Assembly (NCBI GenBank): GCA_044226875.1
Contig: JBGAGD010000003.1
Location: 294,601-358,600 of the forward strand
Source of the DNA: Bacteroidia bacterium
GTDB taxonomy: Bacteria > Bacteroidota > Bacteroidia > B-17B0 > Aurantibacillaceae
Direction of reading: 5' to 3'
DNA: 64,000 nucleotides
Within the stretch, counting starts at the first letter, position 1, and every line of letters begins with the position of its first letter. Position numbers and translations under genes: made by a program. This document shows positions 3,754 to 18,453 of the stretch, one piece after another. The notes under the pieces were generated by a model. That model saw only the letters and a program-made list of their open reading frames with translations, ran no database searches and was not told the origin of the DNA.

Positions 3754-4302
3754 ATGACAGCAGTTAGAAAAATTAAAACAGTAACACCACATTTAACAGT
3801 AATAAAAGGTGGCAAATCAAATCCAAAAAACAACACAGTTGAGAACACATGGATTTTTATTCACGCAGCATTATGGTGCAATAATGAGTTTACTAATAAA
3901 GAAGAAACTCAGTTTCAAAATCTAATCGCAGAGCATTATAACACTTTTAAAAATCCAACAAAAGTATTTGAAGAGATTATTGAGCGTGTGTGTTTAGCGA
4001 AACGTTATGTAAACAGAAAACGTGGTCGTTATTTATCAAAACCTATTGATTGGTTAAACCTCAATTATCACAAGGGTTTAGCAGGTACAGAAGGATGGTA
4101 TCAAGAAGTTTGTTTGCAACGCATTAGTGTACCTGAATACAATAAAGGGATTACACTTCTCGCAAAAGCAATTACAAAATATCTGCAAGAACCTACAATT
4201 AAAACGATTGTTGCGTATCGCAAAAAGCTGATTGCACAAAAGCAATTCGATCTCTTACAAATTTTCAATAACAGCATTATCAATTTTCAAATCAATAATT
4301 AA
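3754..4302 (+). CDS. Hypothetical protein (candidate replication/regulatory protein next to the iteron region)
   Basis: 182-aa ORF immediately downstream of the repeat arrays. No motif recognised. Confidence 0.55.
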   Translation: MTAVRKIKTVTPHLTVIKGGKSNPKNNTVENTWIFIHAALWCNNEFTNKEETQFQNLIAEHYNTFKNPTKVFEEIIERVCLAKRYVNRKRGRYLSKPIDWLNLNYHKGLAGTEGWYQEVCLQRISVPEYNKGITLLAKAITKYLQEPTIKTIVAYRKKLIAQKQFDLLQIFNNSIINFQINN

Positions 4303-4311
4303 AAATAAACG

Positions 4312-4521
4312 ATGTCAAAAGTAGAAGTAAAATCAATCGAAATAAGACCATATATGCCGGGAGAATTGGCGAAGCTTTATAAAGTGAGTCACCCAACAAT
4401 CATAAGATGGATCAAAGGAATTGGAGACAAACTTGGTAAACGTGATGGTCAATACTATTCAGTGAAACAAGTAGAGATAATTTTTGAAGAATTAGGATTA
4501 CCAAAGACACTCTATTTCTAA
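4312..4521 (+). CDS. DUF4248-like small DNA-binding protein (paralog of 3084-3287)
   Basis: IEIRPYMPGELAKLYKVSHPTIIRWIKGIGDKLGKRDGQYYSVKQVEIIFEELGLP aligns with the 3084 ORF over the C-terminal 45 aa. Confidence 0.6.
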   Translation: MSKVEVKSIEIRPYMPGELAKLYKVSHPTIIRWIKGIGDKLGKRDGQYYSVKQVEIIFEELGLPKTLYF

Positions 4522-4618
4522 AAACAAATCGAAACGTCATAAAACCTCTCAAAACGATTTGATACATGCGCCAAAAAGAGGAAAGCGACTCAGACAACCG
4601 CTGCAACTTTGTACCGTG

Positions 4619-4846
4619 ATGGATGAATTACTAACTAAAAAAGAAAACGAAATGTCAGAAATTAAACACAATGCCGGAACACCGGATGGAACAGGAAACA
4701 TGCTACTTACAGCGAGCATCCTATTTGCAAACATTGACTACTCCAGTTTATTGGACTATGCGATTAAAGCAATTGTAGGTGGAGCAATTTGGATGGCATT
4801 TAAAGTAGGCGGAGAATATTTCAGCGACAAAATCAGAAAGAAGTAA
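4619..4846 (+). CDS. Small membrane protein (start chosen at internal ATG 4619; track ORF begins 4559)
   Basis: Has a C-terminal hydrophobic segment (LLDYAIKAIVGGAIWMAFKV). The stop abuts the next ATG at 4847. Confidence 0.45.
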   Translation: MDELLTKKENEMSEIKHNAGTPDGTGNMLLTASILFANIDYSSLLDYAIKAIVGGAIWMAFKVGGEYFSDKIRKK

Positions 4847-5347
4847 ATGGCAAGCATTAAAAAAATACTGTTAGGCTTAGGCATAGGAGGAGGCGTGGTA
4901 GCAGGTGGAATGTATCTGTGGAGATTGAATAAGACCTCGATTAACTTGGAGATAGTTCCAACGGTTAAGCTGCACAAGTTGGATTTGCAAGGAGTGGTGT
5001 TGAGAATAGATGTGCAGTTGAAAAATCCAACTCGCACGGGTTTAAAACTCAAGTTCCCTTTTATCAAATTACTGATTAAGGGAAGCAGCATCGGAAGTTC
5101 GCAAGCGGTCAATCAAGACATAGCGATACCTGCATTCGGTGAGGCAAAATTCGAAGCGATAATGATTCGCATTCCAATGTTCAGCCTCCTCTCTACTGCC
5201 AAAGGCTTATTACAAGCGGTACAACAAGGCGAAGCATTTAAAATTGGTGTTACTACCATGACAACAATTGATTTAGGTTGGAAGAAAATTCCTTTTGAAA
5301 AAACAGATGAAGTACAATTAATCGGAGCGCAAAATGGAGGCAACTAA
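4847..5347 (+). CDS. N-terminally anchored LEA_2/NDR1-like beta-sandwich protein
   Basis: A TM segment (ILLGLGIGGGVVAGGMYLW) is followed by LRIDVQLKNPTRTGLKLKFPFIKLLIKGSSIGSS. This resembles the LEA_2 (PF03168) pattern l.v.NPN..l......l..g..lg. Confidence 0.45.
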   Translation: MASIKKILLGLGIGGGVVAGGMYLWRLNKTSINLEIVPTVKLHKLDLQGVVLRIDVQLKNPTRTGLKLKFPFIKLLIKGSSIGSSQAVNQDIAIPAFGEAKFEAIMIRIPMFSLLSTAKGLLQAVQQGEAFKIGVTTMTTIDLGWKKIPFEKTDEVQLIGAQNGGN

Positions 5348-7094
5348 AAAAAGAAAAATAAGAAGCGGAGAAGAGTTCGACCATTTGTTTCCAAAGCCAT
5401 TGTTCCTTGATCCAACAATTAAAAAAGGTGCAACAGTAGATGACACGGTACGATTCATTCCCCAAGTAGTGAGAGAAACATTGTTTCAAACTGCAAAGTT
5501 AGCTCCACTTCTAAAAGGAAAAAACGTTTATGAAACCTGCAAGAACATTTGGGATTTTGTATACAACCACATCGCCTATAAGAAAGATGCAAATGGTAAA
5601 GAACAAATCAGAAGTCCGGCAAGAGGCTGGCACGATAGGTTTCATGGGATAGATTGCGATTGTTACACGGTGTTTATCAGCAGCATATTGAGCAACTTAA
5701 AAATAAAGCACAAACTGCGAATCACAAAATACAAACAAGATCACTTTCAGCACATCTATCCAATCGTGCCAACAACAGGAGGAAATTACATCACGGTCGA
5801 TTGTGTGGTAGACCGATTCAATTACGAAGAACCATACTCAGAAAAACAAGATACAACTATGGAATTAGAATATTTAAATGGCGTACCCAGCACAAACAAT
5901 GTAGATGTGCAAGACCTAATGGGTTGGGAAGAATTAGAAGGAGGCGACTTAGGTAAACTCTTTAAAAGAAAAGCTGCATCAGGCGGTGATGGTGGTGGTG
6001 CGAAAAAAGGAATTTTTAAAAAGCTAAGTCAACCACCGGGAAGCGATGGCGGAAAGAAAGGTGGTAAACTAAAAAACTTTATTCATAAAGCTCTTCATGT
6101 TACCAACCGAGTAAATCCTGCAACTGCTTTAATCCGATCAGGAGTATTAATCAGTATGAAACTTAATCTCTTCAAAGTAGCTCAACGATTAAAGTTCGCA
6201 TATCTAACAGATGAGCAAGCGAGACAGAAAGAAGTTGATATGAGCAAGTTCGACCGATTAAAAAAAGTAAAAGAAAAGTTAGAGAAGATTTTTTATGATG
6301 CCGGAGGTAAACCTGAAAATTTAAAGAAGGCAATCCTAACAGGCAAAGGAAATAAAAATCATGAAGTAAGCGGTTTAGGATATATCGTGGATGACATGAA
6401 TGGTCTTGATGAAACTTCTTCAATGAGCGATTTACTTGGTACTGAAGTTTTCTACGATGAAGGATTTAGCGGATTAGGAGAACTTGGTTCAGCAACTGCA
6501 ACTGCTGCTTCAATAACAGCAGCAACAGGAATCATCGGTGCAATTGCAGGGTTACTAAAAGGAATCGGAAACATCTTCCCTAAGAAAAAGAAAGAAGGAC
6601 AAGAATTTGAAAACACCGAATCGCAAGCAGGAGATGGAACAACAGCAGAAGAAGTATCGCAAGGTGCAGCAAATGTAAAAATTACTAACAGCGATACGGG
6701 AGAATCTACAACCACAACAAGCAGTTCAGGAGGCGGTGGAGAATCGGGATCAGAGTCAAGTGGTTCAGGAGGAGATGGCGGAGGAAGTGGCGATGGATCG
6801 AAAGCAATGATGCGAAGCGCAAGCACGACAGACAACGGTGGTGATTCAGGATCAGGTACAGGTGGAGATAAGCCTGCTGGATTTTGGGAGAAAAATAAAA
6901 AGTGGTTAAAGCCAACAGCGATTGGAGTAACAGGATTAGGCTTATTATTTCTCGGTTACAAAATGATGAATAAACCAAAGCCTCCTGCTCCAACACCTGT
7001 TGTATCCGGTCAACTCAAGGGATTAAAATCACGAAAGAAAAAGAAAGGAGGAAATAAAGGCACGAAGAAAAAGCAAGCAGTAGCATACATGTAA
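5334..7094 (+). CDS. Transglutaminase-like cysteine-protease-fold protein with G/S/K-rich low-complexity regions and a C-terminal TM anchor
   Basis: Candidate Cys-His-Asp triad with transglutaminase-core spacing: GIDCDCYTVF (C108/C110), FQHIYPIV (H140), ITVDCV (D156). Long GGDGGGAKKG and SSGGGGESGSESSGSGGDGGGSG tracts. TM segment AIGVTGLGLLFLGY followed by a Lys-rich tail. Confidence 0.5.
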   Translation: MEATKKRKIRSGEEFDHLFPKPLFLDPTIKKGATVDDTVRFIPQVVRETLFQTAKLAPLLKGKNVYETCKNIWDFVYNHIAYKKDANGKEQIRSPARGWHDRFHGIDCDCYTVFISSILSNLKIKHKLRITKYKQDHFQHIYPIVPTTGGNYITVDCVVDRFNYEEPYSEKQDTTMELEYLNGVPSTNNVDVQDLMGWEELEGGDLGKLFKRKAASGGDGGGAKKGIFKKLSQPPGSDGGKKGGKLKNFIHKALHVTNRVNPATALIRSGVLISMKLNLFKVAQRLKFAYLTDEQARQKEVDMSKFDRLKKVKEKLEKIFYDAGGKPENLKKAILTGKGNKNHEVSGLGYIVDDMNGLDETSSMSDLLGTEVFYDEGFSGLGELGSATATAASITAATGIIGAIAGLLKGIGNIFPKKKKEGQEFENTESQAGDGTTAEEVSQGAANVKITNSDTGESTTTTSSSGGGGESGSESSGSGGDGGGSGDGSKAMMRSASTTDNGGDSGSGTGGDKPAGFWEKNKKWLKPTAIGVTGLGLLFLGYKMMNKPKPPAPTPVVSGQLKGLKSRKKKKGGNKGTKKKQAVAYM

Positions 7095-7124
7095 AAAAAG
7101 AAAAACGATTAAAAAAAAAAGAAA

Positions 7125-7754
7125 ATGACAAAGAGAAAAAACAGTTATCAGAAAGCAGCACTCAAAAAATCACTTAGTGGTACTGGCGATGCAAGTACAG
7201 GAGCGAAAGTGAAAGACGCTGCAACTGAGTTGGGAAAAGACATCGTGATCGGAGTAATCGGAGGCGGAGTTGCAGGAGCTGTGTTAGGAAGATTGTCTTT
7301 CGTTGTTGGAGCAGCTGTTACAGGAGTTGGTCATTTTGCGAAAAACCGAATTGCATCAGCACTTGGTTTAGGAATGATGGCTTCAGGCACTTATCAAACT
7401 ATGTCCGGCATGAGTGGAAAACCCACTTCAGGATTGGATGGCGTGAAAGAGCGATTAATGGCTTTAAAGGACGACATGAAGAAGAGAATTTTTCTTGACA
7501 AAGTTTTGAAAGCAAAAGAAAAGAAAGAAGAGAAAACCGAAGAAGGAACAAACGGACTCGGACAAGTACAATACTTCGTTTACCCAAACACAGAGGACTC
7601 AATGGGCGCAGTTGAAATGAATGAGTTGGATAAAATCCAACAACAAATTCAAGCAAGCGCAATGAAGTACAACCAAGTTAATGGGATTGAAGTAGATCTC
7701 TTAAGCGGTGAAGAAGACATGGGCGAAGTAGAACCATCAGAAAAAATCTACTAA
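7125..7754 (+). CDS. Gly-zipper membrane protein, acidic C-terminus
   Basis: Two Gly/Ala-rich hydrophobic segments (IVIGVIGGGVAGAVLG, FVVGAAVTGVGHF). No known domain recognised. Confidence 0.6.
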   Translation: MTKRKNSYQKAALKKSLSGTGDASTGAKVKDAATELGKDIVIGVIGGGVAGAVLGRLSFVVGAAVTGVGHFAKNRIASALGLGMMASGTYQTMSGMSGKPTSGLDGVKERLMALKDDMKKRIFLDKVLKAKEKKEEKTEEGTNGLGQVQYFVYPNTEDSMGAVEMNELDKIQQQIQASAMKYNQVNGIEVDLLSGEEDMGEVEPSEKIY

Positions 7755-7816
7755 ACAAAAATCAAACATCCATCACACAAAATAAATCAAAAGTTAAATT
7801 TTAAAAAACAAAAATT

Positions 7817-8536
7817 ATGTTAGAACTATTAGACGGAACAGAAGAGTACAATAACGCAGGAGCGTTGTTAGGATTAGAAGGTGCAGAAAGCGAAGAACTG
7901 TTAGGTGCGCTTCGTAGAATGAACCCAATTGCTCGTCAACGCACCATTAACAAGTTGGCAAATCCTGGAGCAGGAAGTAAAGGCTCTCGTGCTGAAATGG
8001 AGAAACATTTCCGTGAGTTACCTGCGCACATCAAAAGTGCATTAGCAAAAGGAGAATTGCGTTTGGCAGATACCATTGTGTATTCCATCAAACCTGTGAA
8101 TTCAAAAACCATTAAGTTGTTTGAAACTCAGGATGTGAAAGAAGTTGGCTTGAGAAATATCAGCAACGCAAAATTACCAAAGAACCAAGCCTTATTGGTA
8201 AGCGGAATCGTGTTGTTGGCATCTATCCCTGAAAATGCGACTGCCGACAAAGTAATGGGATCGAAGTTTATTCAGTTGGAAGATTTCCCTGCAATTGCAA
8301 ACGGAGAGTTCAGCTTAAAAGCAAACAAAAAAATCATCATTCCTGAAACAAGTGTTGCTGCATTCAAAACATCAAACATGCACAGCGTTCCATTAGGATA
8401 TTACAAGTTGGCGAATCCACGCTTGATTCACGATGACATCTTGTTAGAGTTCACCGTTGAGTTAGGCTCAATGGAAGGACTTGATCCAAAAACCCAATTG
8501 TATGTTGGTTTACACGGAACTATTACAACTCCTTAA
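7817..8536 (+). CDS. Putative major structural (capsid?) protein
   Basis: 239 aa with a helical N-terminus and a beta-rich C-terminal ~150 aa. Followed by a strong intrinsic terminator, as is often seen after highly expressed capsid genes. The function is inferred. Confidence 0.35.
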   Translation: MLELLDGTEEYNNAGALLGLEGAESEELLGALRRMNPIARQRTINKLANPGAGSKGSRAEMEKHFRELPAHIKSALAKGELRLADTIVYSIKPVNSKTIKLFETQDVKEVGLRNISNAKLPKNQALLVSGIVLLASIPENATADKVMGSKFIQLEDFPAIANGEFSLKANKKIIIPETSVAAFKTSNMHSVPLGYYKLANPRLIHDDILLEFTVELGSMEGLDPKTQLYVGLHGTITTP

Positions 8537-8553
8537 TCAATAACCTAATAAGT

Positions 8554-8576
8554 CGGGAGAGCAATCTCCCGGCTTT
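8554..8576 (+). terminator. Rho-independent terminator
   Basis: CGGGAGA-gcaa-TCTCCCG hairpin followed by GCTTTT. Confidence 0.6.
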
Positions 8577-8591
8577 TAAAAAAGCAATACC

Positions 8592-8975
8592 ATGTTAAAA
8601 GCAACGAAAAAAAGATTTGATATAAAAATTCTTGTGGCGAACTCAACGGTGAGTGAAACCTTTGAATTGGAGAAGAACATTGTGAAAGTGCATGGGGTGT
8701 TGGTTACATCGGATAAGGACGATCTATTGTATTACAGAGGAACTCAGAAGATTGAAATAAACAAAGAAGAGTTCTTTCCTGATAACTACGAAAGCAAATT
8801 GTTAATGTCAGGAATCAATGTAGCACCAAAACAACGCTACTATGATTTGGGTGGTGTTGCACCCGGCAATGGCAGAGTTCAAATCTCTTACAAAGATTTG
8901 GATGATGGCAGAACGGTGTTCACGCCTTACCGAGTGAGTTTGTACTTAGACTGTGAAATGGAGGATGAGTTATGA
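8592..8975 (+). CDS. Hypothetical beta-rich protein (phage module)
   Basis: 127-aa ORF. ATGA overlap with the next ORF. Confidence 0.6.
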   Translation: MLKATKKRFDIKILVANSTVSETFELEKNIVKVHGVLVTSDKDDLLYYRGTQKIEINKEEFFPDNYESKLLMSGINVAPKQRYYDLGGVAPGNGRVQISYKDLDDGRTVFTPYRVSLYLDCEMEDEL

Positions 8976-9520
8976 TGAAAGAAGGAGTGATAATTAAAAC
9001 GATAAGTATTAAACGACAAGGCGAACGGAAACACTTTCAAATCAGGCTTCCCAAGGACACCAAGTTTATCATTGGAGTTGAATATGGAGGAAGATTGATA
9101 AGCAGAACGGAAGGTACTGTTGAAGCACCTGCACCAAAAGCTAAAACAGATGCGAAGGTCATTGAAGCTATTCATTCAACTGTTGAATCAGGCGCAGTAA
9201 GAGATGATAAACCAAAAGCACTTTTCAAAAGAAACCAATTAATCGGTGAGTTGAAACTGCAAAGTTGTGAAGAGGCGAATTGGTTTTATGCAGCAGATGT
9301 TTTTGGAAACGATGCCAACTTGAATTGGGGAGATTTTTCTCAAACAGGTTTTCCGGTAAATGATTTCACTCATGGCAATAAAAGAACAGAAGAAATTGTG
9401 AAGGTTGATGCAGAGTCGACAATCATTAACGGATGGTATTTAGATGCCTTGGGTAAGACGTTAAAGTTGGATATCAACTACGAGATTAAAGTTTATGTAT
9501 GGATTAATGTGGAGGAATAG
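8972..9520 (+). CDS. Hypothetical beta-rich protein (phage module)
   Basis: 182-aa ORF, translationally coupled to its neighbours. Confidence 0.6.
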   Translation: MMKEGVIIKTISIKRQGERKHFQIRLPKDTKFIIGVEYGGRLISRTEGTVEAPAPKAKTDAKVIEAIHSTVESGAVRDDKPKALFKRNQLIGELKLQSCEEANWFYAADVFGNDANLNWGDFSQTGFPVNDFTHGNKRTEEIVKVDAESTIINGWYLDALGKTLKLDINYEIKVYVWINVEE

Positions 9521-9523
9521 AAA

Positions 9524-9856
9524 ATGACAATAAATCTCGCCTTAGAATACATCCCACGAAGGATGCAGGAATTAGGATACAAGTCAGATTACTTTATCCG
9601 CTTCCGACACTTGGTGTTACAGCCAAATGAAGAACTAACCATTGATGCCCACACTCAATTCTATTACCTCGTTGAAGAAGCGCAGAATGTAAGAGTTGAA
9701 AGTGAAACAGGAATATTCGATTTGAGCGAAAGTGCTACCAATGAAATGCAATACGAACATCAAAGTAAAATACAGATCACTAATTATTTATCCGGAATCA
9801 ATCACTTAAGATTCATTCAAGTAATACCAAAAAACAAAACAACAATTAAAAAGTAA
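9524..9856 (+). CDS. Hypothetical small beta-rich protein (phage module)
   Basis: 110-aa ORF starting 3 nt after the previous stop. Confidence 0.6.
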   Translation: MTINLALEYIPRRMQELGYKSDYFIRFRHLVLQPNEELTIDAHTQFYYLVEEAQNVRVESETGIFDLSESATNEMQYEHQSKIQITNYLSGINHLRFIQVIPKNKTTIKK

Positions 9857-9861
9857 GAGTA

Positions 9862-10731
9862 ATGCAACATACCAATCCATATAACGATGTGAAGCTTTCC
9901 CAATTTAAAATGTGGCTTCACGACATGGTCGACAAAGGCGAAGGGAAATATATTGAAGTGTACGTTGACGATGTAAAAGTTGTGCCTCGTACCAACAGAA
10001 TTGAATCCATCGATGACCACAAAGTTTATCTTGATGATAGCACGGAAACAATAAAGATTTTCACTTACAATACTGAAAATTCAAACCGCTATCAGCAGTT
10101 TACTTTTTTCATCGAAAAAAAGAAACCAATTGAACACCCGGTTCAAAATCAAACACCACAAGTTCAACAACCACAAGGGCTATCCGGTATTGAATTAGAA
10201 AACAAAATCAATCAGTCCTTGGCACAAGAGCGTGAGCGTTGGCAAAATGATTTGATGAAACGTGACTATGAAACTTGCCAAAAGAAACTTACCGAAGCAG
10301 AAGATTACATCGAGGAGTTAGAAGAAAAACTCAATGTGTATAAAAGTAAAAAACTGCATTTAGGTGATGTTAACCTTGGTGAAGTTGCCTCTATTGTTTT
10401 AGAGGGAATGGTTAAACGAAACCCACATTGGGTTGCCAAATTACCCGGTGGAGATGCGCTTGCAGGATTGATTGCAAAGGAAGCTACAGAAAACGGAACA
10501 GCAGAAGTAATTGAAAGCGAAGTTGTGTTTAAAAAGAAAACACCTGTTGAAGATGGAATGTCCGAAGAGATGAAAGCGCAACTTGGATTCTTAAAACAAT
10601 TGGAATCACACTTTAATCAGGAGCAGCTTGATAAAATAATGCTCATCCTACAATCCTTTGTTGAAGAGCCAAAGAACATCGAAACAGTATTTGAACTATT
10701 AGAAATAAAAACAGAAAATGAAAAAGTTTAG
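9862..10731 (+). CDS. Hypothetical protein with Q/P linker and coiled-coil segment (scaffold-like?)
   Basis: 289 aa. Has a QNQTPQVQQPQ linker followed by the heptad-like LTEAEDYIEELEEKLNVYKSKK. Confidence 0.55.
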   Translation: MQHTNPYNDVKLSQFKMWLHDMVDKGEGKYIEVYVDDVKVVPRTNRIESIDDHKVYLDDSTETIKIFTYNTENSNRYQQFTFFIEKKKPIEHPVQNQTPQVQQPQGLSGIELENKINQSLAQERERWQNDLMKRDYETCQKKLTEAEDYIEELEEKLNVYKSKKLHLGDVNLGEVASIVLEGMVKRNPHWVAKLPGGDALAGLIAKEATENGTAEVIESEVVFKKKTPVEDGMSEEMKAQLGFLKQLESHFNQEQLDKIMLILQSFVEEPKNIETVFELLEIKTENEKV

Positions 10732-10900
10732 TTATGAAATAACCATTGAAGCGGCTACTGAAGCAGAAGCCGATTCTAAAATGAAAGCGTTAACCACGAT
10801 TGCAAAAAAGTTAAACACTAAGGAAATAGTGAAGCTTGCCGACATCGTACAAAACGATCCTGTAAAAACTGCATTAGCAAAAAAAGCATTAGGAGTATAA
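10718..10900 (+). CDS. Small helical hypothetical protein
   Basis: 60-aa ORF that overlaps the previous gene by 14 nt and ends 1 nt before the next ATG. Confidence 0.45.
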   Translation: MKKFSYEITIEAATEAEADSKMKALTTIAKKLNTKEIVKLADIVQNDPVKTALAKKALGV

Positions 10901-10901
10901 A

Positions 10902-11579
10902 ATGAAAAAGAATACCACCAAAGATGATTTAACCTTGAAAGAGAAACTTCTCTATTCCCTTATCGGAATTGGGATTGTGGGCGGTGGTATTTTCTTTGGG
11001 AAAAAGCTTGTTTTAAAAGGAGTCGCTAATCGTGAAGAGAAGAAATCTTTTGAAGATGGTACACCTGCAACCTTCGCCAAACAAATTAAAATGGCATTTG
11101 ACAATGATGGTTGGTGGGGAACAGATACCGAGAAGTTAAGAAGCACGTTAAGGGAGATCCCAAGTAAACAAGTTTTTCTCAAAGTACAGGAGTCCTATAA
11201 AAAACTCTACAACTCAAATATGATAACCGACATGAGTGATGAGTTGCAAACAACCGAGTACAATGAGATGCTTCAAATAATTGCACAGAAGCCGGATAAA
11301 ACGGGCGGTAAGCCTTCAAGTCCAACTTTAGTGTATGATGGGTGGGCAAAGCGTTTAAAAGCAGCCTTTGATAAAGAATACGGTTTTATACCGGGAACAG
11401 ATGAAGAAGCAATCAAAGCAGTTTTTAATGAAATGCCTACTCAAAAAGCATTTATCATGACCGGAGTAGTTTACAAGAAACTATATGCAACCGACATGAT
11501 GACCGATTTGAAAAGTGAGTTAGAGATGTGGGAATACAACGATTACTTAAAAATAATACTATCAAAACCAAAGGGATAA
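10902..11579 (+). CDS. Membrane-anchored protein with two annexin-like repeats
   Basis: N-terminal TM segment (LLYSLIGIGIVGGGIFFG). Two ~72-aa repeats: ...GWWGTDTEKLRSTLREIPSKQ..VQESYKKLYNSNMITDMSDELQTTEYNEMLQII and ...GFIPGTDEEAIKAVFNEMPTQK....VYKKLYATDMMTDLKSELEMWEYNDYLKIIL. Both follow the annexin repeat consensus G.GTDE..li.il..rs..q...i...Ykk.yg.dL..dlksE.sg.....l..l. Confidence 0.7.
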   Translation: MKKNTTKDDLTLKEKLLYSLIGIGIVGGGIFFGKKLVLKGVANREEKKSFEDGTPATFAKQIKMAFDNDGWWGTDTEKLRSTLREIPSKQVFLKVQESYKKLYNSNMITDMSDELQTTEYNEMLQIIAQKPDKTGGKPSSPTLVYDGWAKRLKAAFDKEYGFIPGTDEEAIKAVFNEMPTQKAFIMTGVVYKKLYATDMMTDLKSELEMWEYNDYLKIILSKPKG

Positions 11580-12193
11580 TGGAAAGCAAAACACAAAATA
11601 AAAGAAAAATAATCCTGATCGGACTGAGTGTATTAGGAACTGGTGTCGCTGGCTTCTTAGGATGGAACTACTGGAAAAAGAAGAAAGCGAATCAGGAAGA
11701 AGATACAACCTCCTTTACAGAAACTGCAAGCGTAAATACTGCGCCTGTAAAAAACGACAGCTTCCCTTTAAAAAGAGGCAGTAAAGGAAACAGAGTAACA
11801 CAACTTCAAAATGCCTTAGTTAAAAAATTCGGAGCAAGCATACTTCCAAAATACGGAGTAGATGGAATGTTCGGGAAAGAGGTTGAAGCAGCATTAGTGA
11901 GGGCTAAGTTGCCGACATCAATTAACGAATCGACCTATAATTCTTTTGTTGGTGCAAGCGGATTTGCCGGAATCATAAAACATGGAGATGAGATCGTTTC
12001 GATTGTTGAAACTGAAATCTATAAATCCAAAGGCAACTTTAAAATGAAAGTGCCTAAGCACATTGTGCTTGGCGAGAAGGAGTTTACTCATCAAGGTTGG
12101 ATTTACTTTATTCCTAAGAATAGCACAGAGCTTTTCAGGGTTAAAAAAGAACAAGTAAAATCCTTTAAAGAATTTAAAAATGAAAAATCTTAG
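11579..12193 (+). CDS. Membrane-anchored peptidoglycan-binding (PG_binding_1) protein
   Basis: Start taken at ATG 11579 (TAATG overlap with the previous stop). TM segment IILIGLSVLGTGVAGFLGW. LKRGSKGNRVTQLQNALVKKFG...VDGMFGKEVEAALVRAKL matches PG_binding_1. Confidence 0.7.
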   Translation: MESKTQNKRKIILIGLSVLGTGVAGFLGWNYWKKKKANQEEDTTSFTETASVNTAPVKNDSFPLKRGSKGNRVTQLQNALVKKFGASILPKYGVDGMFGKEVEAALVRAKLPTSINESTYNSFVGASGFAGIIKHGDEIVSIVETEIYKSKGNFKMKVPKHIVLGEKEFTHQGWIYFIPKNSTELFRVKKEQVKSFKEFKNEKS

Positions 12194-12626
12194 AAACATT
12201 AAATATATCGTGGTGCATTGTACCGCAACTCCACCAACAACAACTGTTGAATCCATTAAACGCTATTGGAAAGAACAACGTGGTTGGGGTGATACACCGG
12301 GCTACCATTACTTGATCCAACGACAAGGGAATTTAATTCAGTTGTTAGATGAAAGCAAAAACAGCTATGGCGTTTATGCTCACAATTCAAATTGCATTAG
12401 CCTTGCTTACATCGGTGGAATTGATAAAGATGGCAAACCACAAGACAACAGAACAGATGCACAAAAGCATTCCATGTTTGATTTGATTGTTTCTCTAACT
12501 GAGAAATATCCAAATGCACAGGTGTTGGGACATCGTGATTTTGCAGGAGTGAAAAAAGCCTGTCCTTGTTTCGATGTGAAGAAGTGGTTAAGTGAGTATG
12601 AACCCGATTTAGGAAACGCTGCATAA
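12180..12626 (+). CDS. N-acetylmuramoyl-L-alanine amidase (Amidase_2/PGRP, T7-lysozyme-like endolysin)
   Basis: Motifs IKYIVVHCTATPP, GYHYLI, ISLAYIGG, GHRDF..KACPCFDV provide the Zn ligands (H, H, C). Confidence 0.85.
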   Translation: MKNLRNIKYIVVHCTATPPTTTVESIKRYWKEQRGWGDTPGYHYLIQRQGNLIQLLDESKNSYGVYAHNSNCISLAYIGGIDKDGKPQDNRTDAQKHSMFDLIVSLTEKYPNAQVLGHRDFAGVKKACPCFDVKKWLSEYEPDLGNAA

Positions 12627-13309
12627 TGTTGCTATCGAAGATCAAAGGAATTCTACGAAGCAAAGGATATGAACTCTACACAAAGCCGAATCAATTAAAC
12701 ATAGTTGGGATTAGATCACCAAATACAATCCCTAATCGTTTTGATGATGAGATTCATGTCTTTTACAAAGTAGCCCCATTAAAATGGCATTACCATGTTT
12801 ACAAGGTAACAACCGATCCGGGTACATTTTGGTTGCGTAATCCAATGCAACCTCAAGGTACAGCCATCTTAGCTCAAGGGCAATACAAAGGTGCGTATAG
12901 AATCGGAATGCATCAAGGGAAGTACAAAGCATTGGTGCAATCAAAACCGATAACTGTAATAAGAGATTACGACAGAGATGCAAAACTTGATTTTAAAAAT
13001 GGCACAAAGAGCAAAGGGATGTATGGGATTAATATCCACCGTGCAAGTTTGAATGGGATCACAAAGCAAGTAGATAAATATTCTGCCGGATGTCAAGTGT
13101 TTTCAAATATCAATGAGTTCAAGGAATTCTTGAGTTTGTGCGAGAAGCACTTGAGTTTATACGGTAACAGTTTTACATACACGCTGATTGATTTTAGAGC
13201 GGTAAAGCGACAATCCTTTAAGCGTTGGGCTATCGGAACGGTGACTGTAGCATTAGGTTTAACAGCCTTGTGGGGAATTCTAAAAAGGAAAAAGAAAAAA
13301 CAAAAATGA
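12626..13309 (+). CDS. Putative cell-wall-active protein with YkuD-like H...SxGC signature and C-terminal TM anchor
   Basis: GINIHRAS...VDKYSAGCQVF resembles the L,D-transpeptidase-fold catalytic His/Cys motif. C-terminal TM segment WAIGTVTVALGLTALWGIL plus a KRKKKKQK tail. TAATG coupling to the amidase gene. Confidence 0.35.
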   Translation: MLLSKIKGILRSKGYELYTKPNQLNIVGIRSPNTIPNRFDDEIHVFYKVAPLKWHYHVYKVTTDPGTFWLRNPMQPQGTAILAQGQYKGAYRIGMHQGKYKALVQSKPITVIRDYDRDAKLDFKNGTKSKGMYGINIHRASLNGITKQVDKYSAGCQVFSNINEFKEFLSLCEKHLSLYGNSFTYTLIDFRAVKRQSFKRWAIGTVTVALGLTALWGILKRKKKKQK

Positions 13310-13530
13310 AAAATCGATTCATAACAGCTTTAGCGCAATTGCTAAAAGACAAAAATGGTAATACCAGTCTGCGTGAAGTAGTCACAGTCTTGTTTGTGAT
13401 TGTGTTGCTCGTGAGTTGGATTGCAGATCAGTTCTTTGAATTACAAATGCCCGAACACATGTTTTATGGTTTTATAACCCTTGTGGGAGCAGGTTGCTTC
13501 GGGTACTCGATTGAAAAAAAACAAGTGTAA
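13306..13530 (+). CDS. Holin-like small two-TM protein
   Basis: 74 aa from the internal ATG at 13306 (ATGA overlap with the previous stop). Two hydrophobic segments (VVTVLFVIVLLVSWI, FYGFITLVGAGCFGY). Sits in the lysis cassette. Confidence 0.45.
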   Translation: MKNRFITALAQLLKDKNGNTSLREVVTVLFVIVLLVSWIADQFFELQMPEHMFYGFITLVGAGCFGYSIEKKQV

Positions 13531-13549
13531 AATTTAAAAACTAATAAAT

Positions 13550-14155
13550 ATGAAACAGTTATTTTCTGCCTTTATCATAGGCATCATTGTTTGTTTCATC
13601 GCTGTAAAAAGCTGCGATGACAAACCAAAACAGGTAAATGTAAAAGAAATCAAAAAGGAGATTAAGACCTCCGGCAACTTAGTAGAAACGGTTAATCACG
13701 AATACCAAAAGGCGAAACACGAGTTCTCCAAAGTTGCCGATTCTTTGAAAACTGAAAACCAAAAGCTAAATGTAAAACTGCAAGTAACAAGAGCGTTATT
13801 GAAGAAGCAGCAAACAGTAGTTGTAAGCAATATTCCTTGTGACACATTGCGAAAGGAAGTTATAGTGCTGAACGATTTATGTAATGCTCAAGACAGTATA
13901 TGCAGCGTTTCCATTAGTTCGCTCAATCAAGCGGTTGCAGTAAGGGATTCACAAATTGTAATGTGTAACAGGAGTTATCAATCCTTGTTCGACATACAAA
14001 AAGAAAATCAGCAAAGACAAATGCAATTAGCTGAAGAGTTGAATACAGCTTACAAGGCAAACAGAAAGAAACGTTTTGAAAACAAAATGCTCACCTATGG
14101 GCTAATGATAATGTCGGGAATAACAACAACACTATTTATTAAATCACAGCAATAA
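13550..14155 (+). CDS. Spanin-like protein: N-terminal signal/anchor with Cys22, coiled-coil middle, C-terminal TM
   Basis: N-terminus MKQLFSAFIIGIIVCFIAVKSCDD, a heptad-rich middle, and C-terminal LTYGLMIMSGITTTLFI. Located right after the holin-like gene. Confidence 0.35.
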   Translation: MKQLFSAFIIGIIVCFIAVKSCDDKPKQVNVKEIKKEIKTSGNLVETVNHEYQKAKHEFSKVADSLKTENQKLNVKLQVTRALLKKQQTVVVSNIPCDTLRKEVIVLNDLCNAQDSICSVSISSLNQAVAVRDSQIVMCNRSYQSLFDIQKENQQRQMQLAEELNTAYKANRKKRFENKMLTYGLMIMSGITTTLFIKSQQ

Positions 14156-14330
14156 TGATAAAAGAGAAAACTATCGTTTCAACCACCACACTTGCAGCCT
14201 CTCTACTTATGTACTTCTATGCGAGAACCGCACAGAAAGACGCAGTTCCCTATGTGATGATTGGTGGTTTTATGGGAGCGGTTATCGGAGAGAGCATTGT
14301 TGAATATATAAACAAAAATAAAAAAGACTA
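14154..14330 (+). CDS. Unlisted 58-aa two-TM small protein (below ORF-track cutoff)
   Basis: Hand translation: MIKEKTIVSTTTLAASLLMYFYARTAQKDAVPYVMIGGFMGAVIGESIVEYINKNKKD. TAATG overlap with the previous stop. It exactly fills the gap before the ATG at 14334. Confidence 0.4.
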
Positions 14331-14333
14331 AGT

Positions 14334-14891
14334 ATGGCAACTATTATTGAAAACAACGGAGGTAGCATTAAGATTACCGAGAATGGTTCATCACGTTTTG
14401 TTCTGAAGTATCAGGTTCGTGAAGTGGAAATCGTAAGAGATACCATTATCAAAATTGACATCGGACAAGGTGCGCTAAACAACATCTATGTTGATCAGGC
14501 AGATGTTACTGCTCCAGTAACTGCTACAGTTGAGGAGTTGAGAGATCAAATCATTGGAATGTTACAAACCAATGTAACAGGGACTGCAACCGAAGCCAAA
14601 CAAACTGAAGAGATTAACGAGATTAAAAATCTTCAGGCAGTTGTTGGGAACTTGCAAGCGAAAGTAAATTCATTGGACGACAAAACATTCTTTCAACCTA
14701 AGTTGGTTGATGAGAGTAATGCAAATGTTGTGTACAATGGATTCGCTGTACCGGGAACAGCAGTTGATGCGCCTGTTTGGGCAATTCAGAAAGTAACCAA
14801 AACGAATGGTGTTTATTCCTACCAATGGGCAGGAGGTAACAGAAACTTCGACAAAATTTGGAACAACAGAAAAGCATTAATCTATAGCTAA
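14334..14891 (+). CDS. Hypothetical protein with central coiled coil (possible virion/receptor-binding protein)
   Basis: 185 aa. Coiled-coil stretch EINEIKNLQAVVGNLQAKVNSLD and a beta-rich C-terminus. Followed by a strong terminator. Confidence 0.55.
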   Translation: MATIIENNGGSIKITENGSSRFVLKYQVREVEIVRDTIIKIDIGQGALNNIYVDQADVTAPVTATVEELRDQIIGMLQTNVTGTATEAKQTEEINEIKNLQAVVGNLQAKVNSLDDKTFFQPKLVDESNANVVYNGFAVPGTAVDAPVWAIQKVTKTNGVYSYQWAGGNRNFDKIWNNRKALIYS

Positions 14892-14897
14892 AATCAA

Positions 14898-14930
14898 AGA
14901 GCCTCTTTCGGGAGGCTCTTTATTCTTTTT
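14898..14930 (+). terminator. Rho-independent terminator
   Basis: AGAGCCTC-tttcgg-GAGGCTCT hairpin followed by TTATTCTTTTT. Confidence 0.65.
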
Positions 14931-14933
14931 AAA

Positions 14934-15806
14934 ATGAAAACACCAATAACATACTACGGAGGGAAACAAACCCTATTAAAATACCTACTCCCTTTGATTC
15001 CGCAGCACAGATTGTACTGCGAACCGTTCTTTGGTGGTGGTGCAGTATTTTTTGCTAAACCGAAATCGGAAGTAGAAGTAATTAATGATATCAATAATGA
15101 AGTCATTAATTTTTTCAAAGTAATTAAAACGAAGTTCCCTGAACTTCAAAAAGAAATTCAATCAACCTTACACAGTCGTGAACTTTATAAAAGAGCGATG
15201 GAGATTTATAATAACCCCACAAAGTATTCAGATGTGAAACGTGCATGGGCATTATGGACAGCAACCAATCAAGGTTTCGCTGGCATGATAGGCTCTTGGG
15301 GTTTTGGTAAGGATGATTCAAAAGAAGCAGCACTCGCCAATAAAAGAGATGCTTTTACAAAGGAGTATGAACAACGACTCACAAAAGTGCAAGTCGAAAA
15401 TAATAGTGCAATCAAAGTAATAAACAGATGCGATGACAAAGAAACATTTATCTATGCAGACCCTCCGTACATTGGTTCGGATCAAGGTCATTATAAAGGT
15501 TATTCGGAAGACGATTACCGAGAACTTCTCAATGCGCTTTCCAAGGTAAAAGGAAAGTTCTTGTTAAGTTCTTATCCTTCAAAAATTCTAACCACTTACA
15601 TCAATAAATACAAGTGGAAAGTTCAAAAGGTTACTAAAAGCGTTGCAGTAACAAAACACACCGATAAAGTAAAAACGGAAATGATCGTTATGAATTACGA
15701 TCCTGCAAAAGCAAAATCTTTTATACACACATTGAGTCTGAAGGAGAAGAAGGACTTGCAAAGTTTAACGAGACAATTAACGCAATTAAAATTTAAAGCA
15801 AAATGA
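14934..15806 (+). CDS. dam: DNA adenine methyltransferase (D12 class, Dam-like), orphan
   Basis: Motifs YYGGKQTLLKYLLPLIP, EPFFGGGAVFF (SAM binding) and YADPPYIGS (DPPY catalytic motif). No adjacent restriction endonuclease recognised. Confidence 0.85.
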   Translation: MKTPITYYGGKQTLLKYLLPLIPQHRLYCEPFFGGGAVFFAKPKSEVEVINDINNEVINFFKVIKTKFPELQKEIQSTLHSRELYKRAMEIYNNPTKYSDVKRAWALWTATNQGFAGMIGSWGFGKDDSKEAALANKRDAFTKEYEQRLTKVQVENNSAIKVINRCDDKETFIYADPPYIGSDQGHYKGYSEDDYRELLNALSKVKGKFLLSSYPSKILTTYINKYKWKVQKVTKSVAVTKHTDKVKTEMIVMNYDPAKAKSFIHTLSLKEKKDLQSLTRQLTQLKFKAK

Positions 15807-17959
15807 GAATAACAACCAAGAATTATTTTAAAGCCATTAGTGAAGTTGGTTTTGAGAATCTGCCGGAGGTGCTTAAAAAATCTCACTTGGTGATTGAAGA
15901 GAAAACTAACAAAGGCAACGATTGGGGCATTTATGAAAATGATGCCGAGGCAAAAAAGGTGTTTGATTTAGCGTTTGATAAACTTGAGGAATTTATCGAC
16001 CGCAAAGAAGATCTTTCAGGCTTAGATGGCAACCCAATCATTGACAGAGCAAAGAAGGATGCCGCAGGATATAAGGACTTGCCACTCGATAAATTAAAAA
16101 TGATTTATCGTTTGGAACTTGATGCTGAATTGGAAGATGGATTAACTCCCGAAATTAAAATTAGAAAGGCTGCTTTGGAAAAAGCTATTGCTGCTAAAGA
16201 GGGAAAAAGCAATGGTGTATCCGTTAGTTCAAAAAACAAATTTGCAGGTATTAGCAATGAAATAAAATTCATTCACATGTATCTAAATTTCCATGACAAG
16301 GTTCTTTATAAAAATACCATCGGTTTATTTATAGATGATCTTCAAAAAGCAATCACAGAAAAGAAGATTACAAAAAAGTCGCCTGTTGCAAAGGAAATCA
16401 TGGAGATGCAGGAGTCTGCGTTAAAAGCTTTTAATTCCATGCGGAACGCCAAACATATTATGTTGCGTCCTGAAGTAATTAAAAAGCTAAAAGGCATCAT
16501 TGAGAAGTATGAGAATGCTTACGATGATATTGATGAGTCTTATGCAAAAGAAAAAAAGCAAAAGAAGAACTTAAATGGTTTGGGTAATGTTCCGGTAAAC
16601 ATTATGCCGAGTAAGGAATTCACAAACCTTCATTTTAATACAATAGGGTTCACAGGAAAATGGCTTGACTTTATTGGCGATCCTGCTCCGGGTTTTACTG
16701 CGATGGTATTTGGAATGCCTAAGATGGGTAAGAGTTATTTGTGCATTGATTTTGCCGGCTATTTAGCGAGAAATCATGGCAAGGTGTTATACGTTGCCAA
16801 AGAAGAGAAGCTTGATGCTACGTTGCAGAAAAAGTTAAAGGATAAAGATGTTGCTCATGAAAATTTATTTGTATCGGATGCACTTCCTACAGAACTATCT
16901 TCTTATGATTTTATTTTTCTTGATTCTGTAAACAAACTTGGTCTTACTGCGAAAGACCTGGAAAAATTAAAAATGCAAAACAAAGGAAAGTCTTTTGTCT
17001 TTATTTTTCAGGCAACCAAAGGCGGTCAGTTCAAAGGCAACAATGAGTTTCAACATGATGTTGATGTTGTAATTGAAATACCGGAAAAAGGTATTGCAAC
17101 TCAATACGGTCGTTTTAATCAGGGTGGAAAGATGGGAGTATTCGATGATGCGCCCATTGGAGATGTGGAAGAGTTAAATGGTGTCAGAAAAAGCGGAAAG
17201 AACTTGGAAGTTCCAAAGAAAGTATCGAACGTAGACACTATGAAAAAGAAAGCAACAAAAACCGAAGACTGGACTGAGCCGGAACACTTAAATAAAAGTG
17301 ACCATGCAGTTCTTAAAGAAATTAATCGCCTTTATAAAGCAAAGAAATATAAAGAAGCGATGAACCGTGCAATGGAAACGGATACGATTGTTAGGGAGGA
17401 AATCCCCGGAGACATTTGGAAAAAGATGGGTGGTCAGTTAACTAAAACAGGAGAAGAAAGATTAAAAGCAAAACACAGCAAAGCTTCTCCTGAAATAGTT
17501 AAAGCAGAAAAGCCTAAACAAACAATTGTTTTTAATTCTACAATCCGTGCTTTAAAAGGAGTTATTGAGCGTGAGTGGGATCTTGAATTAACGGATGGCG
17601 AGTACATTGAAATTTTAGACATCGCTCAAGAACAAAGCGTAAATTTTTACGATGTTGTAACTGAAATGCATCCGAACCTTACAGCGTTTATGACGCAGAT
17701 GGGGATGGCGTTAAAAGTGTGGGATAAAACTGCCGAGAAATCAAAAGGAAAGTTTGATCCTCGCTACTATGCAAATAGAAAGGATGACGACAACCCTTCT
17801 TTTATCTTTAGTTTAACAAGTAGTAAACTGCTTGCTGAAGCTATCGAAGGAGACTTTGATTTGATTTATTTAGTGCGCAGGGAATTGGCTAACAGGGGGC
17901 AAGATAGCAAGGGAAAATGGGTTGGGTTTGATGAAGCTAAAAGAATCCACAGAATTTAA
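15803..17959 (+). CDS. Multidomain protein with central RecA-superfamily P-loop ATPase (DnaB/RepA/RadA-like core)
   Basis: Walker A GMPKMGKS (nt 16712-16735) and Walker B YDFIFLDSV. FVFIFQATKGGQFKGNNEFQHDVDVVIEI resembles the RadA/DnaB C-terminal core. Flanking ~270-aa N-terminal and C-terminal regions have no recognised motif. Confidence 0.6.
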   Translation: MRITTKNYFKAISEVGFENLPEVLKKSHLVIEEKTNKGNDWGIYENDAEAKKVFDLAFDKLEEFIDRKEDLSGLDGNPIIDRAKKDAAGYKDLPLDKLKMIYRLELDAELEDGLTPEIKIRKAALEKAIAAKEGKSNGVSVSSKNKFAGISNEIKFIHMYLNFHDKVLYKNTIGLFIDDLQKAITEKKITKKSPVAKEIMEMQESALKAFNSMRNAKHIMLRPEVIKKLKGIIEKYENAYDDIDESYAKEKKQKKNLNGLGNVPVNIMPSKEFTNLHFNTIGFTGKWLDFIGDPAPGFTAMVFGMPKMGKSYLCIDFAGYLARNHGKVLYVAKEEKLDATLQKKLKDKDVAHENLFVSDALPTELSSYDFIFLDSVNKLGLTAKDLEKLKMQNKGKSFVFIFQATKGGQFKGNNEFQHDVDVVIEIPEKGIATQYGRFNQGGKMGVFDDAPIGDVEELNGVRKSGKNLEVPKKVSNVDTMKKKATKTEDWTEPEHLNKSDHAVLKEINRLYKAKKYKEAMNRAMETDTIVREEIPGDIWKKMGGQLTKTGEERLKAKHSKASPEIVKAEKPKQTIVFNSTIRALKGVIEREWDLELTDGEYIEILDIAQEQSVNFYDVVTEMHPNLTAFMTQMGMALKVWDKTAEKSKGKFDPRYYANRKDDDNPSFIFSLTSSKLLAEAIEGDFDLIYLVRRELANRGQDSKGKWVGFDEAKRIHRI

Positions 17960-18013
17960 AGTAACTATGAAAAAGTGGAAATGAATTGGGCTACCCCTCT
18001 TCATTTTCATTTT

Positions 18014-18056
18014 GTATTTAAGTATTTGCTTAAATACAATAATAAGCATACATTTG
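18014..18056 (+). promoter_or_regulatory. Candidate ArsR/SmtB operator plus -7 promoter box
   Basis: Perfect inverted repeat GTATTTAAG-N6-CTTAAATAC (18014-18037). TACATTTG (18049-18056) matches TAnnTTTG and lies 20 nt upstream of the ATG at 18076. Confidence 0.45.
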
Positions 18057-18075
18057 TACGTAATTTAAACTCATA

Positions 18076-18453
18076 ATGGAAAAAAGCGCCTGCATAAGAG
18101 TATATGCCGACCGGAGGCAAATTGATCAATGCCGAAAGACTTTGAATGAAAATGCTTCTACATTCCAATCTCTTGGAAAGGTCTTAGAATTAGCGGGCAA
18201 TGAAATTCGTTTAAAAATTCTCTTCCTATTAGAGGAGCAGAATGAACTCTGCCCTTGCGATTTAAGTGATATTTTAGGAATCAGCATTCCGGCAGTTTCG
18301 CAGCATCTTCGAAAAATGAAGGATGGAAACATTGTACAAACGAGGCGTTCTGCTCAAACAATATTTTATTCATTAAAGGAGGAGCATCATAAAATACTCA
18401 AGCCATTTTTCAAACATATCAATAAGGGAAACTTAAAATCTGAAAAAGTATAA
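18076..18453 (+). CDS. ArsR/SmtB-family metalloregulator
   Basis: LKILFLLEEQNELCPCDLSDILGISIPAVSQHLRKMKDGNIV is a winged HTH with an ELCxCDL metal-sensing motif. Confidence 0.8.
   Translation: MEKSACIRVYADRRQIDQCRKTLNENASTFQSLGKVLELAGNEIRLKILFLLEEQNELCPCDLSDILGISIPAVSQHLRKMKDGNIVQTRRSAQTIFYSLKEEHHKILKPFFKHINKGNLKSEKV

Follow-up and report, generated by a model that had tools for sequence, protein, structure and literature searches.

A 64-kb stretch of contig JBGAGD010000003.1 of a Bacteroidia bacterium, here called the window (the whole stretch, within which all coordinates are given), contains an open reading frame (ORF) that encodes a genuine but divergent two-repeat annexin. The homology is secure because a family profile, a profile of the first repeat, individual matches by homologs, an AlphaFold2 (AF2) model and Foldseek searches converge. 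The annexin gene belongs to the fixed core of a widespread, phage-like mobile element of 16–18 kb that is confined to Bacteroidota, and this is apparently the first link of bacterial annexins to a virus-like element. The positions of the gene, its parts and its neighbours are collected in Table 1.

At the amino acid (aa) level, the ORF encodes a short N-terminal tail, one membrane anchor, a Lys/Arg-rich juxtamembrane helix and two annexin repeats. An earlier interpretation made from the DNA letters, termed here the sequence-only reading, had given the ORF and its coordinates exactly; the ORF starts with ATG and encodes 225 aa. The motifs it listed, GTD(T/E)E, YKKLY and SDEL/KSEL, and the peptide it quoted are all present in the translation. 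The transmembrane (TM) helix that it proposed near the N-terminus is found as a hydrophobic segment at aa 16–33; this is the sole TM-like segment of the protein, and Kyte-Doolittle windows of 19 residues exceed 1.2 across aa 14 to 41. The ORF has no signal peptide and no lipobox. The two proposed repeats are borne out by self-alignment, in which aa ∼57–131 pair with aa ∼147–222 (nt ∼11070–11294 and ∼11340–11567) with 31 identities in 76 positions. The BLOSUM62 local score between the repeats is 159 versus 24.9 ± 4.9 for shuffled sequences (1000 shuffles; z = 27; maximum shuffle 51).

Taken singly, the protein does not reach the Pfam annexin family. The hmmscan comparison with PF00191 that had been suggested as a check is sub-threshold, at 15.6 bits (E = 0.017) against a gathering cut-off of 25, and scans of PHROG and NCBIfam with the ORF alone gave zero matches. 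This single-sequence failure is overturned by sequence evidence at the family level together with fold evidence. At least 1163 relatives were found at E ≤ 1e-3 in a set of 5.8 billion proteins clustered at 90% identity. PF00191 is precomputed for five of the 120 relatives listed, and 23 of 30 aligned relatives match it individually, the best at 4.3e-8. When a profile of the 30-sequence family was compared with all PDB sequences, the top 32 matches were all annexins (best E = 2e-7), and the pattern GTDEEAI...YKKLYG..L..DLKSEL aligned with the first repeat of annexin A4. A second profile of 80 positions, built on repeat 1 only from 38 divergent relatives and searched against PDB, gave annexins or annexin fusion constructs in 60 of the 60 matches listed. 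The best E value was 5.6e-33 (annexin VI), independent E values for single repeats went down to 1e-5, and the alignments span positions 4–65 of the 80. An exhaustive profile search of 1.84 billion representatives yielded 491 clusters at 50% identity with E ≤ 1e-3; it also matched, at E = 3.5e-27, a 1208-aa protein with eight matched stretches and canonical KGLGTDE motifs. Wherever any source gives a family member a name, the label is ‘hypothetical protein’.

The AF2 model has the two five-helix annexin repeats that the sequence-only reading had expected, with a predicted local distance difference test score (pLDDT) of 80–93; the N-terminal 52 residues are not confidently modelled. Foldseek comparison of the model with PDB gave 96 matches at E ≤ 1e-3, and the 50 best are annexins or annexin fusions without exception, with E ∼2e-6 and a probability of 1.00. 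The TM-score is 0.36, with a root mean square deviation of 6.7 Å over 166 columns. The score is modest because it is normalised over 225 residues, of which 52 are unstructured, and because the two repeats are packed differently. The modest score and the failure of the protein alone to reach the Pfam threshold are what might be said for an unrelated helical repeat that mimics the annexin consensus by chance. All profile and fold searches nevertheless point to annexins and to no competing family, and the annexin-only matches listed for the repeat-1 profile, with their best E value, refute chance resemblance for practical purposes; its probability is very low. Accordingly, the annexin call of the sequence-only reading stands on the agreement of family profiles, homologs, model and fold search.

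The hallmark residues of annexins were scored on 100 divergent relatives of 200–300 aa, taken from the representatives at 50% identity. In repeat 1, G73 is conserved in 94%, T74 in 84% and D or N at position 75 in 88%; position 114 is acidic in 82%, and Glu114 is invariant in alignment A1. In repeat 2, T166 is found in 80% and D167 in 96%, and position 206 is acidic in 85%. The type II Ca2+ site of annexins is G-x-G-T-(38 residues)-D/E. GTD is present in both repeats of the window protein, but the first Gly is displaced (G-W-W-G-T and G-F-I-P-G-T). The two residues preceding the loop Gly are aromatic or hydrophobic in the relatives (W/Y/F, then W/F/P/L; F/I/W/L), and distant relatives carry the canonical forms GMGTDE, GVGTDE and GWGTD. 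These signatures make Ca2+-bridged lipid binding by the window protein plausible.

The orientation of the protein in the membrane can be predicted from charged residues, counted as Lys and Arg within 15 residues on either side of the TM helix. Among 211 family proteins the mean is 4.4 in the C-terminal flank versus 2.3 in the N-terminal flank; the C-terminal flank has more in 183 proteins and fewer in 15. In the genome loci described below, the N-terminal flank of the annexin is net neutral (2.2 Lys/Arg and 2.3 Asp/Glu), and the C-terminal flank has more Lys/Arg in 54 of 61. The 204-aa wall-binding-like protein encoded directly downstream served as the control, and its N-terminal flank is the more positive one (net +3.1 versus +1.5), as expected for an N-in/C-out protein. 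By the positive-inside rule, the annexin is thus predicted to be N-out/C-in, which would place the repeats on the cytoplasmic face, approximately 18 residues from the bilayer.

The mobile element was delimited by comparison of 113 matching loci in species-representative genomes, of which 80 were retrieved; gene order was analysed on the 59 that have full 10-kb flanks. The loci are nearly all in metagenome-assembled genomes of Bacteroidota (Chitinophagaceae, Sphingobacteriaceae, Cytophagaceae and others); the single match outside such genomes is Chitinophagaceae bacterium IBVUCB1 (NFUW01000002.1, ∼215–236 kb; locus L062). Gene order and strand are constant from the small helix-turn-helix (HTH) proteins to the 718-aa ATPase protein in 59 of 59 full loci. 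The genes flanking these same loci are unrelated to one another, and loci L001–L004 likewise have different flanks. Homology between the window and independent loci begins at 1926–1947 and stops at 17955–17964, and a 65-bp block at 19899–19964 is also common. These borders are sharp and recur in many genomes. The element is taken to extend over ∼1928–19964 because one locus, L007, is collinear with the window over the whole span at 94%. An ArsR-MerC-CDF cassette (18076–19876) lies between the stop codon of the 718-aa gene and the 65-bp block. It looks like cargo inserted just inside the right end, since in other loci the 65-bp block directly follows the 718-aa gene. The first gene of the element encodes an HTH-Peptidase_M78 (ImmA/IrrE-type) regulator. 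TM segments are found in 9–10 of the 24 element proteins.

Genomes, and in some cases single contigs, often carry the element in two or three diverged copies, as in L009/L019, L016/L055, L032/L069, L025/L039 and L007/L026. The annexins of copies in the same genome are 49–90% identical, and some copies lie only 37–46 kb apart on one contig. Such multi-copy carriage suggests that the element was acquired independently several times or that it prefers a certain region for integration.

Diverged variants of the element keep a constant slot for the annexin gene, after genes of 265–310 aa and 60–63 aa and before a gene of 218–347 aa. The annexins in this slot have one repeat (132–168 aa) or two (up to 321 aa). 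The annexin gene is present in every variant examined, whereas methylases, ArsR/MerC and HTH-M78 genes come and go. The nearby wall hydrolase varies and may be Amidase_2, SLT, GH108 with PG_binding_3, or an Amidase_3 further downstream (L088, L093, L094 and L096); a DUF5675 gene is also seen at the hydrolase position in some variant. Of the contextual clues to a shared task directed at the envelope, the strongest is that non-orthologous hydrolases replace one another while the annexin stays in place. A minimal variant of ∼10.5 kb (L096, GCA_041742535.1) has a single-repeat annexin of 132 aa and lacks the module of methylase and ATPase (replication) genes, and may represent a satellite or a defective copy.

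The sequence-only reading called the gene prophage-encoded. What stands of this is that the annexin gene is in the core of an element that is mobile, multi-copy and phage-like, and that two contigs of the viral database IMG/VR carry the whole element including the annexin. These contigs were found by a scan with p239, a capsid candidate of the element; an IMG/VR scan with annexin peptide patterns was empty, which was a miss of the patterns, as the p239 scan recovered two annexin-bearing contigs. The element also has phage-type muralytic genes (Amidase_2/phrog_822, phrog_3000 and one like an endolysin cell-wall-binding domain) and the HTH-Peptidase_M78 gene. On the other side, no capsid, terminase, portal or tail gene was recognised in the element by Pfam, PHROGs, NCBIfam and PDB sequence searches, domain scans showed no integrase or recombinase domain inside its borders, a transposase was not recognised either, and no FtsK/HerA-type packaging ATPase or rolling-circle Rep was recognised in it. 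A search of the element ends for repeats of ≥9 nt, direct or inverted, found none, so that no att repeats were recognised, and the borders have no tRNA or Rfam RNA. No circular or free form was seen, element-sized contigs being pieces of integrated copies. The AF2 model of p239 has a pLDDT of 45 (from a shallow alignment of ≥71% identity), too low for its empty Foldseek search to be meaningful, and a p239 profile gave 0 matches to PDB sequences. Phmmer searches of PDB with p586, p718, p227 and p204 gave nothing significant. No GenBank phage was found with the annexin (by tblastn), p586, p239 or p185, and no viral annexin is present in the BFVD viral structure library. Thus, the term mobile, phage-like element describes what is observed, and ‘prophage’ is reasonable but unproven. 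Among the mobile elements of Bacteroidota it is of an unclassified type, one that goes unnoticed in standard phage annotation.

Table 1. Features of the annexin gene and of the mobile element in the 64-kb window (nt positions; all on the + strand).
Feature	Position	Strand	Remarks
Whole mobile element	1928..19964	+	HTH-Peptidase_M78 regulator, late operon, Dam methylase, 718-aa protein, cargo, right terminus
Late operon	3754..14891	+	∼20 tightly packed genes in 11 kb; holds the annexin gene
60-aa ORF	10718..10900	+	directly upstream with a 1-nt gap; adjoins the annexin gene in every variant examined
Annexin ORF, 225 aa	10902..11579	+	ATG start; short N-tail, one TM helix, K/R-rich juxtamembrane helix, two annexin repeats
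Membrane anchor, aa 16–33 (LLYSLIGIGIVGGGIFFG)	10947..11000	+	N-flank approximately neutral, C-flank K/R-rich; predicts N-out/C-in
Annexin repeat 1, aa 53–131	11058..11294	+	five helices: 53–70, 76–85, 89–103, 107–114, 117–128
AB loop of repeat 1, DGWWGTD, aa 69–75	11106..11126	+	GxGTD-type, one residue longer, Trp-Trp tip
Glu114, distal acidic residue of repeat 1	11241..11243	+	T+40, the annexin Ca2+-ligand position
Annexin repeat 2, aa 142–222	11325..11567	+	five helices: 142–156, 168–177, 181–195, 199–206, 209–220
AB loop of repeat 2, YGFIPGTD, aa 160–167	11379..11402	+	hydrophobic tip, then GTD
Glu206 (KSEL), distal acidic residue of repeat 2	11517..11519	+	aligned to KSEL of annexin A4
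204-aa single-pass membrane protein	11579..12193	+	start overlaps the annexin stop; cell-wall-binding-like
N-acetylmuramoyl-L-alanine amidase	12180..12626	+	Amidase_2, phrog_822
227-aa protein	12626..13309	+	phrog_3000 / endolysin phrog_33083; C-terminal TM, poly-Lys tail
Small membrane proteins of 75 aa, 201 aa (TM, coiled coil, TM) and 58 aa	13303..14331	+	candidates by size and TM pattern only
Terminator-like hairpin, strong, bidirectional	14896..14921	+	closes the operon, directly after the 185-aa ORF

The late operon ends at one of the only two strong terminator-like hairpins on the + strand, the other being at 3325–3343. Intergenic gaps between 8972 and 14891 range from −14 to +19 nt. 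The annexin stop codon overlaps the next start codon in the sequence TAATG (ATG at 11579), as the sequence-only reading stated, and this overlap is real. The sequence-only reading took this position, next to the first lysis gene, to suggest Ca2+/phospholipid binding in membrane handling, either for virion membrane acquisition or for lysis control. As evidence the overlap is weakened; the coupling is unspecific because the whole 11-kb operon is packed equally tightly, and the annexin gene is as tightly joined upstream. A scan for sigma-70 promoters gave fewer hits than expected from shuffled sequence (40 versus 49.6); the model is ill-suited to Bacteroidota and the result was not used.

Downstream of the annexin gene, the 204-aa protein matches the non-catalytic C-terminal part of endolysin PHROGs over aa 34–131, and has no Pfam or PDB support. 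The amidase gene follows, so that the annexin gene is two genes upstream of it. The soluble domain of the 227-aa protein has counterparts of 42–48% identity in crAss-like phages and in phages of Bacteroides, Pseudoalteromonas and Bdellovibrio; the protein also has an SxGC motif, which we take to recall YkuD-type enzymes. The membrane proteins of 75, 201 and 58 aa are candidate holin-like or spanin-like components, judged by size and TM pattern. The small proteins with two TM segments at 13303–13530 and 14155–14331 fit a holin/antiholin better than the annexin does, and the 201-aa protein, with its TM-coiled-coil-TM layout, is a better spanin candidate.

Several other genes of the element have features of their own. 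A 586-aa protein (5334–7094) has a weak transglutaminase-like N-terminal domain (DUF553, E = 0.0023) with visible Cys/His/Asp motifs, followed by long low-complexity linkers rich in Gly and Ser; a TM helix and a Lys-rich tail of 40 residues form the C-terminus. It is kept in all element copies and has no homolog among GenBank phages. A phmmer match of p586 to an adeno-associated virus capsid in PDB (E = 0.079) was discarded, as it falls in a low-complexity region. Two paralogous HTH proteins of 67 and 69 aa (3084–3287 and 4312–4521) have the common motif ...YY(T/S)V(N/K)QV.... Each gene heads a transcription unit, with the strong terminator at 3325–3343 after the first; the proteins may be regulators or resemble excisionases. 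An inverted repeat, ATGCAA-N6-TTGCAT, followed by AATTGCA (1940–1965), precedes the HTH-Peptidase_M78 gene just within the left border and looks like an operator for the element's regulator. The 718-aa protein is a RecA/DnaB-like ATPase with weak similarity to gp40 of Salisaeta phage SSIP-1, which adjoins a primase. We read p718 as a replication protein of the RecA/DnaB type and not as a packaging ATPase. Immediately to the left of the element, at 41–1899, are genes for a 367-aa protein with a GMT-like winged HTH and for a DUF5131 protein (E = 1e-92). Another locus, L019, also has the DUF5131 gene together with the element, and the two genes may be a separate mobile or defence gene pair.

What the annexin does for the element can be addressed tentatively. 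Its likely activity, whether in egress or in assembly of a particle, is attachment to the inner leaflet through Ca2+ and the aromatic loops. An accessory role in breaching of the envelope during egress, in the timing or placement of lysis, has a fair amount in its favour, though its probability stays somewhat below even. It is proposed because the partners of the annexin that can be recognised by function are limited to wall hydrolases, small holin-like proteins and one wall-binding-like protein, and because Ca2+ entry would be a natural trigger. As part of the element's late programme, the repeats would bind the inner leaflet in cis from the cytoplasmic face, held ∼18 residues from the bilayer. 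Binding would be via the GTD loop and the distal Glu of each repeat, as a Ca2+-bridging site, and via the loop tips WW and YGFIP. The repeats might then cluster acidic lipid and self-associate like other annexins, and so organise or bend a patch of membrane. In this manner the annexin could set where or when the inner membrane is breached, plausibly on Ca2+ entering through the first lesions.

A number of observations weigh against this role in envelope breaching. The topology prediction has the positive-inside rule as its only basis. The Ca2+ geometry may differ from that of a canonical annexin, because the AB loops are 1–2 residues longer than GxGT and the acidic ligand is a Glu at T+40 and not T+39. 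Ca2+ is low in the resting bacterial cytoplasm, and a Ca2+-dependent cytoplasmic annexin would therefore be idle unless Ca2+ rises. A conventional lysis set of two hydrolases, two small proteins with two TM segments and a TM-coiled-coil-TM protein seems complete without the annexin. The annexin gene is coupled just as tightly to non-lysis genes upstream, with a gap of 1 nt to the 60-aa ORF, and in variant L093 the recognised hydrolase is not adjacent to it.

The main rival is a role in morphogenesis of a particle membrane. The element would be a tail-less, lipid-containing virus or a vesicle former, and the cytoplasm-facing annexin would bend or organise the patch of inner membrane destined for the particle, or link it to a protein shell. 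In PRD1 and PM2, membrane-associated assembly and structural proteins link the virion membrane to the shell. The proportion of element proteins with TM segments is far beyond the need of a lysis cassette, and tail, portal and terminase genes are lacking. The annexin gene lies between beta-rich soluble proteins (p239, p127, p182b and p110) and the membrane and hydrolase genes; a possible trimeric, spike-like p185 (a weak Trimer_CC hint) comes after the hydrolases, and all of these may be structural. The predicted cytoplasmic orientation would suit inward budding, and the annexin is a strict core gene of a compact element. Nevertheless, the searches described above recognised no capsid fold, FtsK/HerA-type packaging ATPase or rolling-circle Rep. 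The poor p239 model with its empty Foldseek result, the lack of a free or circular genome and the 10.5-kb variant without the replication module also count against morphogenesis, which on balance is rather unlikely. The broader proposal, that the element represents a new lineage of tail-less lipid-containing viruses or vesicle-forming elements of Bacteroidota in which the annexin shapes the inner membrane into the particle membrane, is unlikely to a slightly greater degree.

Annexins aggregate and fuse membranes in a Ca2+-dependent manner, which raises the question of whether the repeats act instead in the Ca2+-rich periplasm, in the manner of a spanin, by binding the inner leaflet of the outer membrane after loss of the wall and bridging or fusing the two membranes. 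The annexin gene adjoins wall-directed genes, and the neighbouring 204-aa protein is of similar build and presumably periplasmic. A periplasmic role is argued against because the charge distribution predicts cytoplasm-facing repeats, the bias being the reverse of that in the periplasmic control protein from these loci. The protein has neither a signal peptide nor a lipobox, the 18-residue linker is too short for the periplasm, and the 201-aa protein fits a spanin better. The spanin-like role is therefore improbable. About equally doubtful is a host-directed accessory function, i.e. protection or repair of the carrier's membrane or exclusion of superinfecting elements. According to a review, membrane repair is the best-established activity of annexins in eukaryotes, which lends this function some plausibility, and the element carries cargo besides (the ArsR-MerC-CDF cassette). 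The annexin gene, however, sits in the middle of an operon, coupled on both sides, and not at the end of the element with a terminator of its own; unlike true cargo, it is found in every variant examined. Envelope breaching thus stays the preferred, if tentative, role.

The first report of annexins in bacteria concerned Cytophaga hutchinsonii, and polymorphic toxins too are known to have annexin domains as accessory modules. A survey of bacterial annexins listed 34 proteins from 17 species and found none in viruses; it gave no neighbourhood clue to function, and the word ‘phage’ does not occur in it (Kodavali et al., 2014; PMC3894181). Many of the survey annexins are from Bacteroidetes, some have TM segments, and the number of repeats is one to five. 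Kordia, Aquimarina and HQM9 have adjacent pairs of short annexins, and a Trp or hydrophobic residue in the GxGTD loop of plant and bacterial annexins has been linked to membrane binding (PMC3894181). The literature searched reports no phage-borne or mobile-element-borne annexin. The claim that a TM-anchored phage annexin would be novel needs dividing: none is found among GenBank phages, in BFVD or in the 2014 survey, but annexins with TM segments have already been described in bacteria, Bacteroidetes included. The window protein belongs to a known superfamily, and a membrane anchor in a bacterial annexin is not new. What is new is how large the family is, that a mobile, phage-like element is its obligatory home, that the AB loops are aromatic and modified, and that a cytoplasmic tethering is predicted beside wall-lysis genes.

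The Bacteroidetes annexins of C. hutchinsonii, Kordia algicida, Aquimarina agarilytica and Flavobacteriaceae HQM9 resemble the window protein in several ways. They are from the same phylum and small, with 50–90 N-terminal residues before the annexin domain; some have predicted TM segments, they have the Trp or hydrophobic residue in the GxGTD loop, and there are several copies per genome. ‘Metalloproteases’ are found near the Kordia annexins, and an HTH-Peptidase_M78 gene opens the element in the window. The published proteins differ in that they are single-domain and often paired, whereas the window protein carries both repeats on a single chain, although related elements also include single-repeat forms. 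Homologs of the single-repeat form include no named cultured strains. It may be that the survey's small Bacteroidetes annexins, with their several copies per genome, come from related elements. The scale also differs: 34 proteins in 2014 versus the clusters found here, which number at least 1163 (90% identity) or 491 (50% identity), all in one type of mobile element.

Eukaryotic annexins (A4, A5 and A6, and plant annexins with GWGTD) have in common with the window protein the five-helix repeat, the GTD loop, an acidic residue ∼40 positions downstream and an aromatic loop tip. They likewise act at the cytosolic face of membranes, the face predicted for the window protein. Eukaryotic annexins have four or eight repeats arranged in a curved disc, however, whereas the window protein has two and proteins of related elements one. 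They are soluble and are recruited to membranes, whereas the window protein is TM-tethered, has AB loops 1–2 residues longer and is without the N-terminal regulatory ‘head’.

Two phage systems offer partial parallels. The T4 holin T and antiholins RI and RIII are single-TM lysis regulators with large soluble domains. The window annexin likewise crosses the membrane once, has a globular domain and has its gene among those for lysis. The parallel, for lysis timing, is one of gene position only; these regulators have no sequence or fold relation to the annexin, and the soluble domain of T is periplasmic. P10 of PRD1 and P3/P6 of PM2 act at the host inner membrane that is destined for the virion. 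They work at the cytoplasmic face of that membrane, where the annexin is predicted to lie, and belong to compact, tail-less phages with many small membrane proteins. No homology to these proteins was found, and the element is without a recognised double or single jelly-roll capsid protein or packaging ATPase.

Annexins are textbook eukaryotic proteins of membrane repair and membrane shaping, and those of bacteria have been held to be rare curiosities of patchy distribution. Here they form a very large family fixed in a mobile element of environmental Bacteroidota. The element is a concrete vehicle for horizontal spread and bears on the question of annexin origin; carriage on it, if true, would explain the patchy distribution among bacteria. 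The annexin gives access to a type of element overlooked in standard phage annotation, and its defined context of wall hydrolases and holin-like proteins makes the function of a prokaryotic annexin testable. If the lipid-virus interpretation is true, the protein would be the first viral annexin and would provide a prokaryotic precedent for annexin-driven membrane remodelling.

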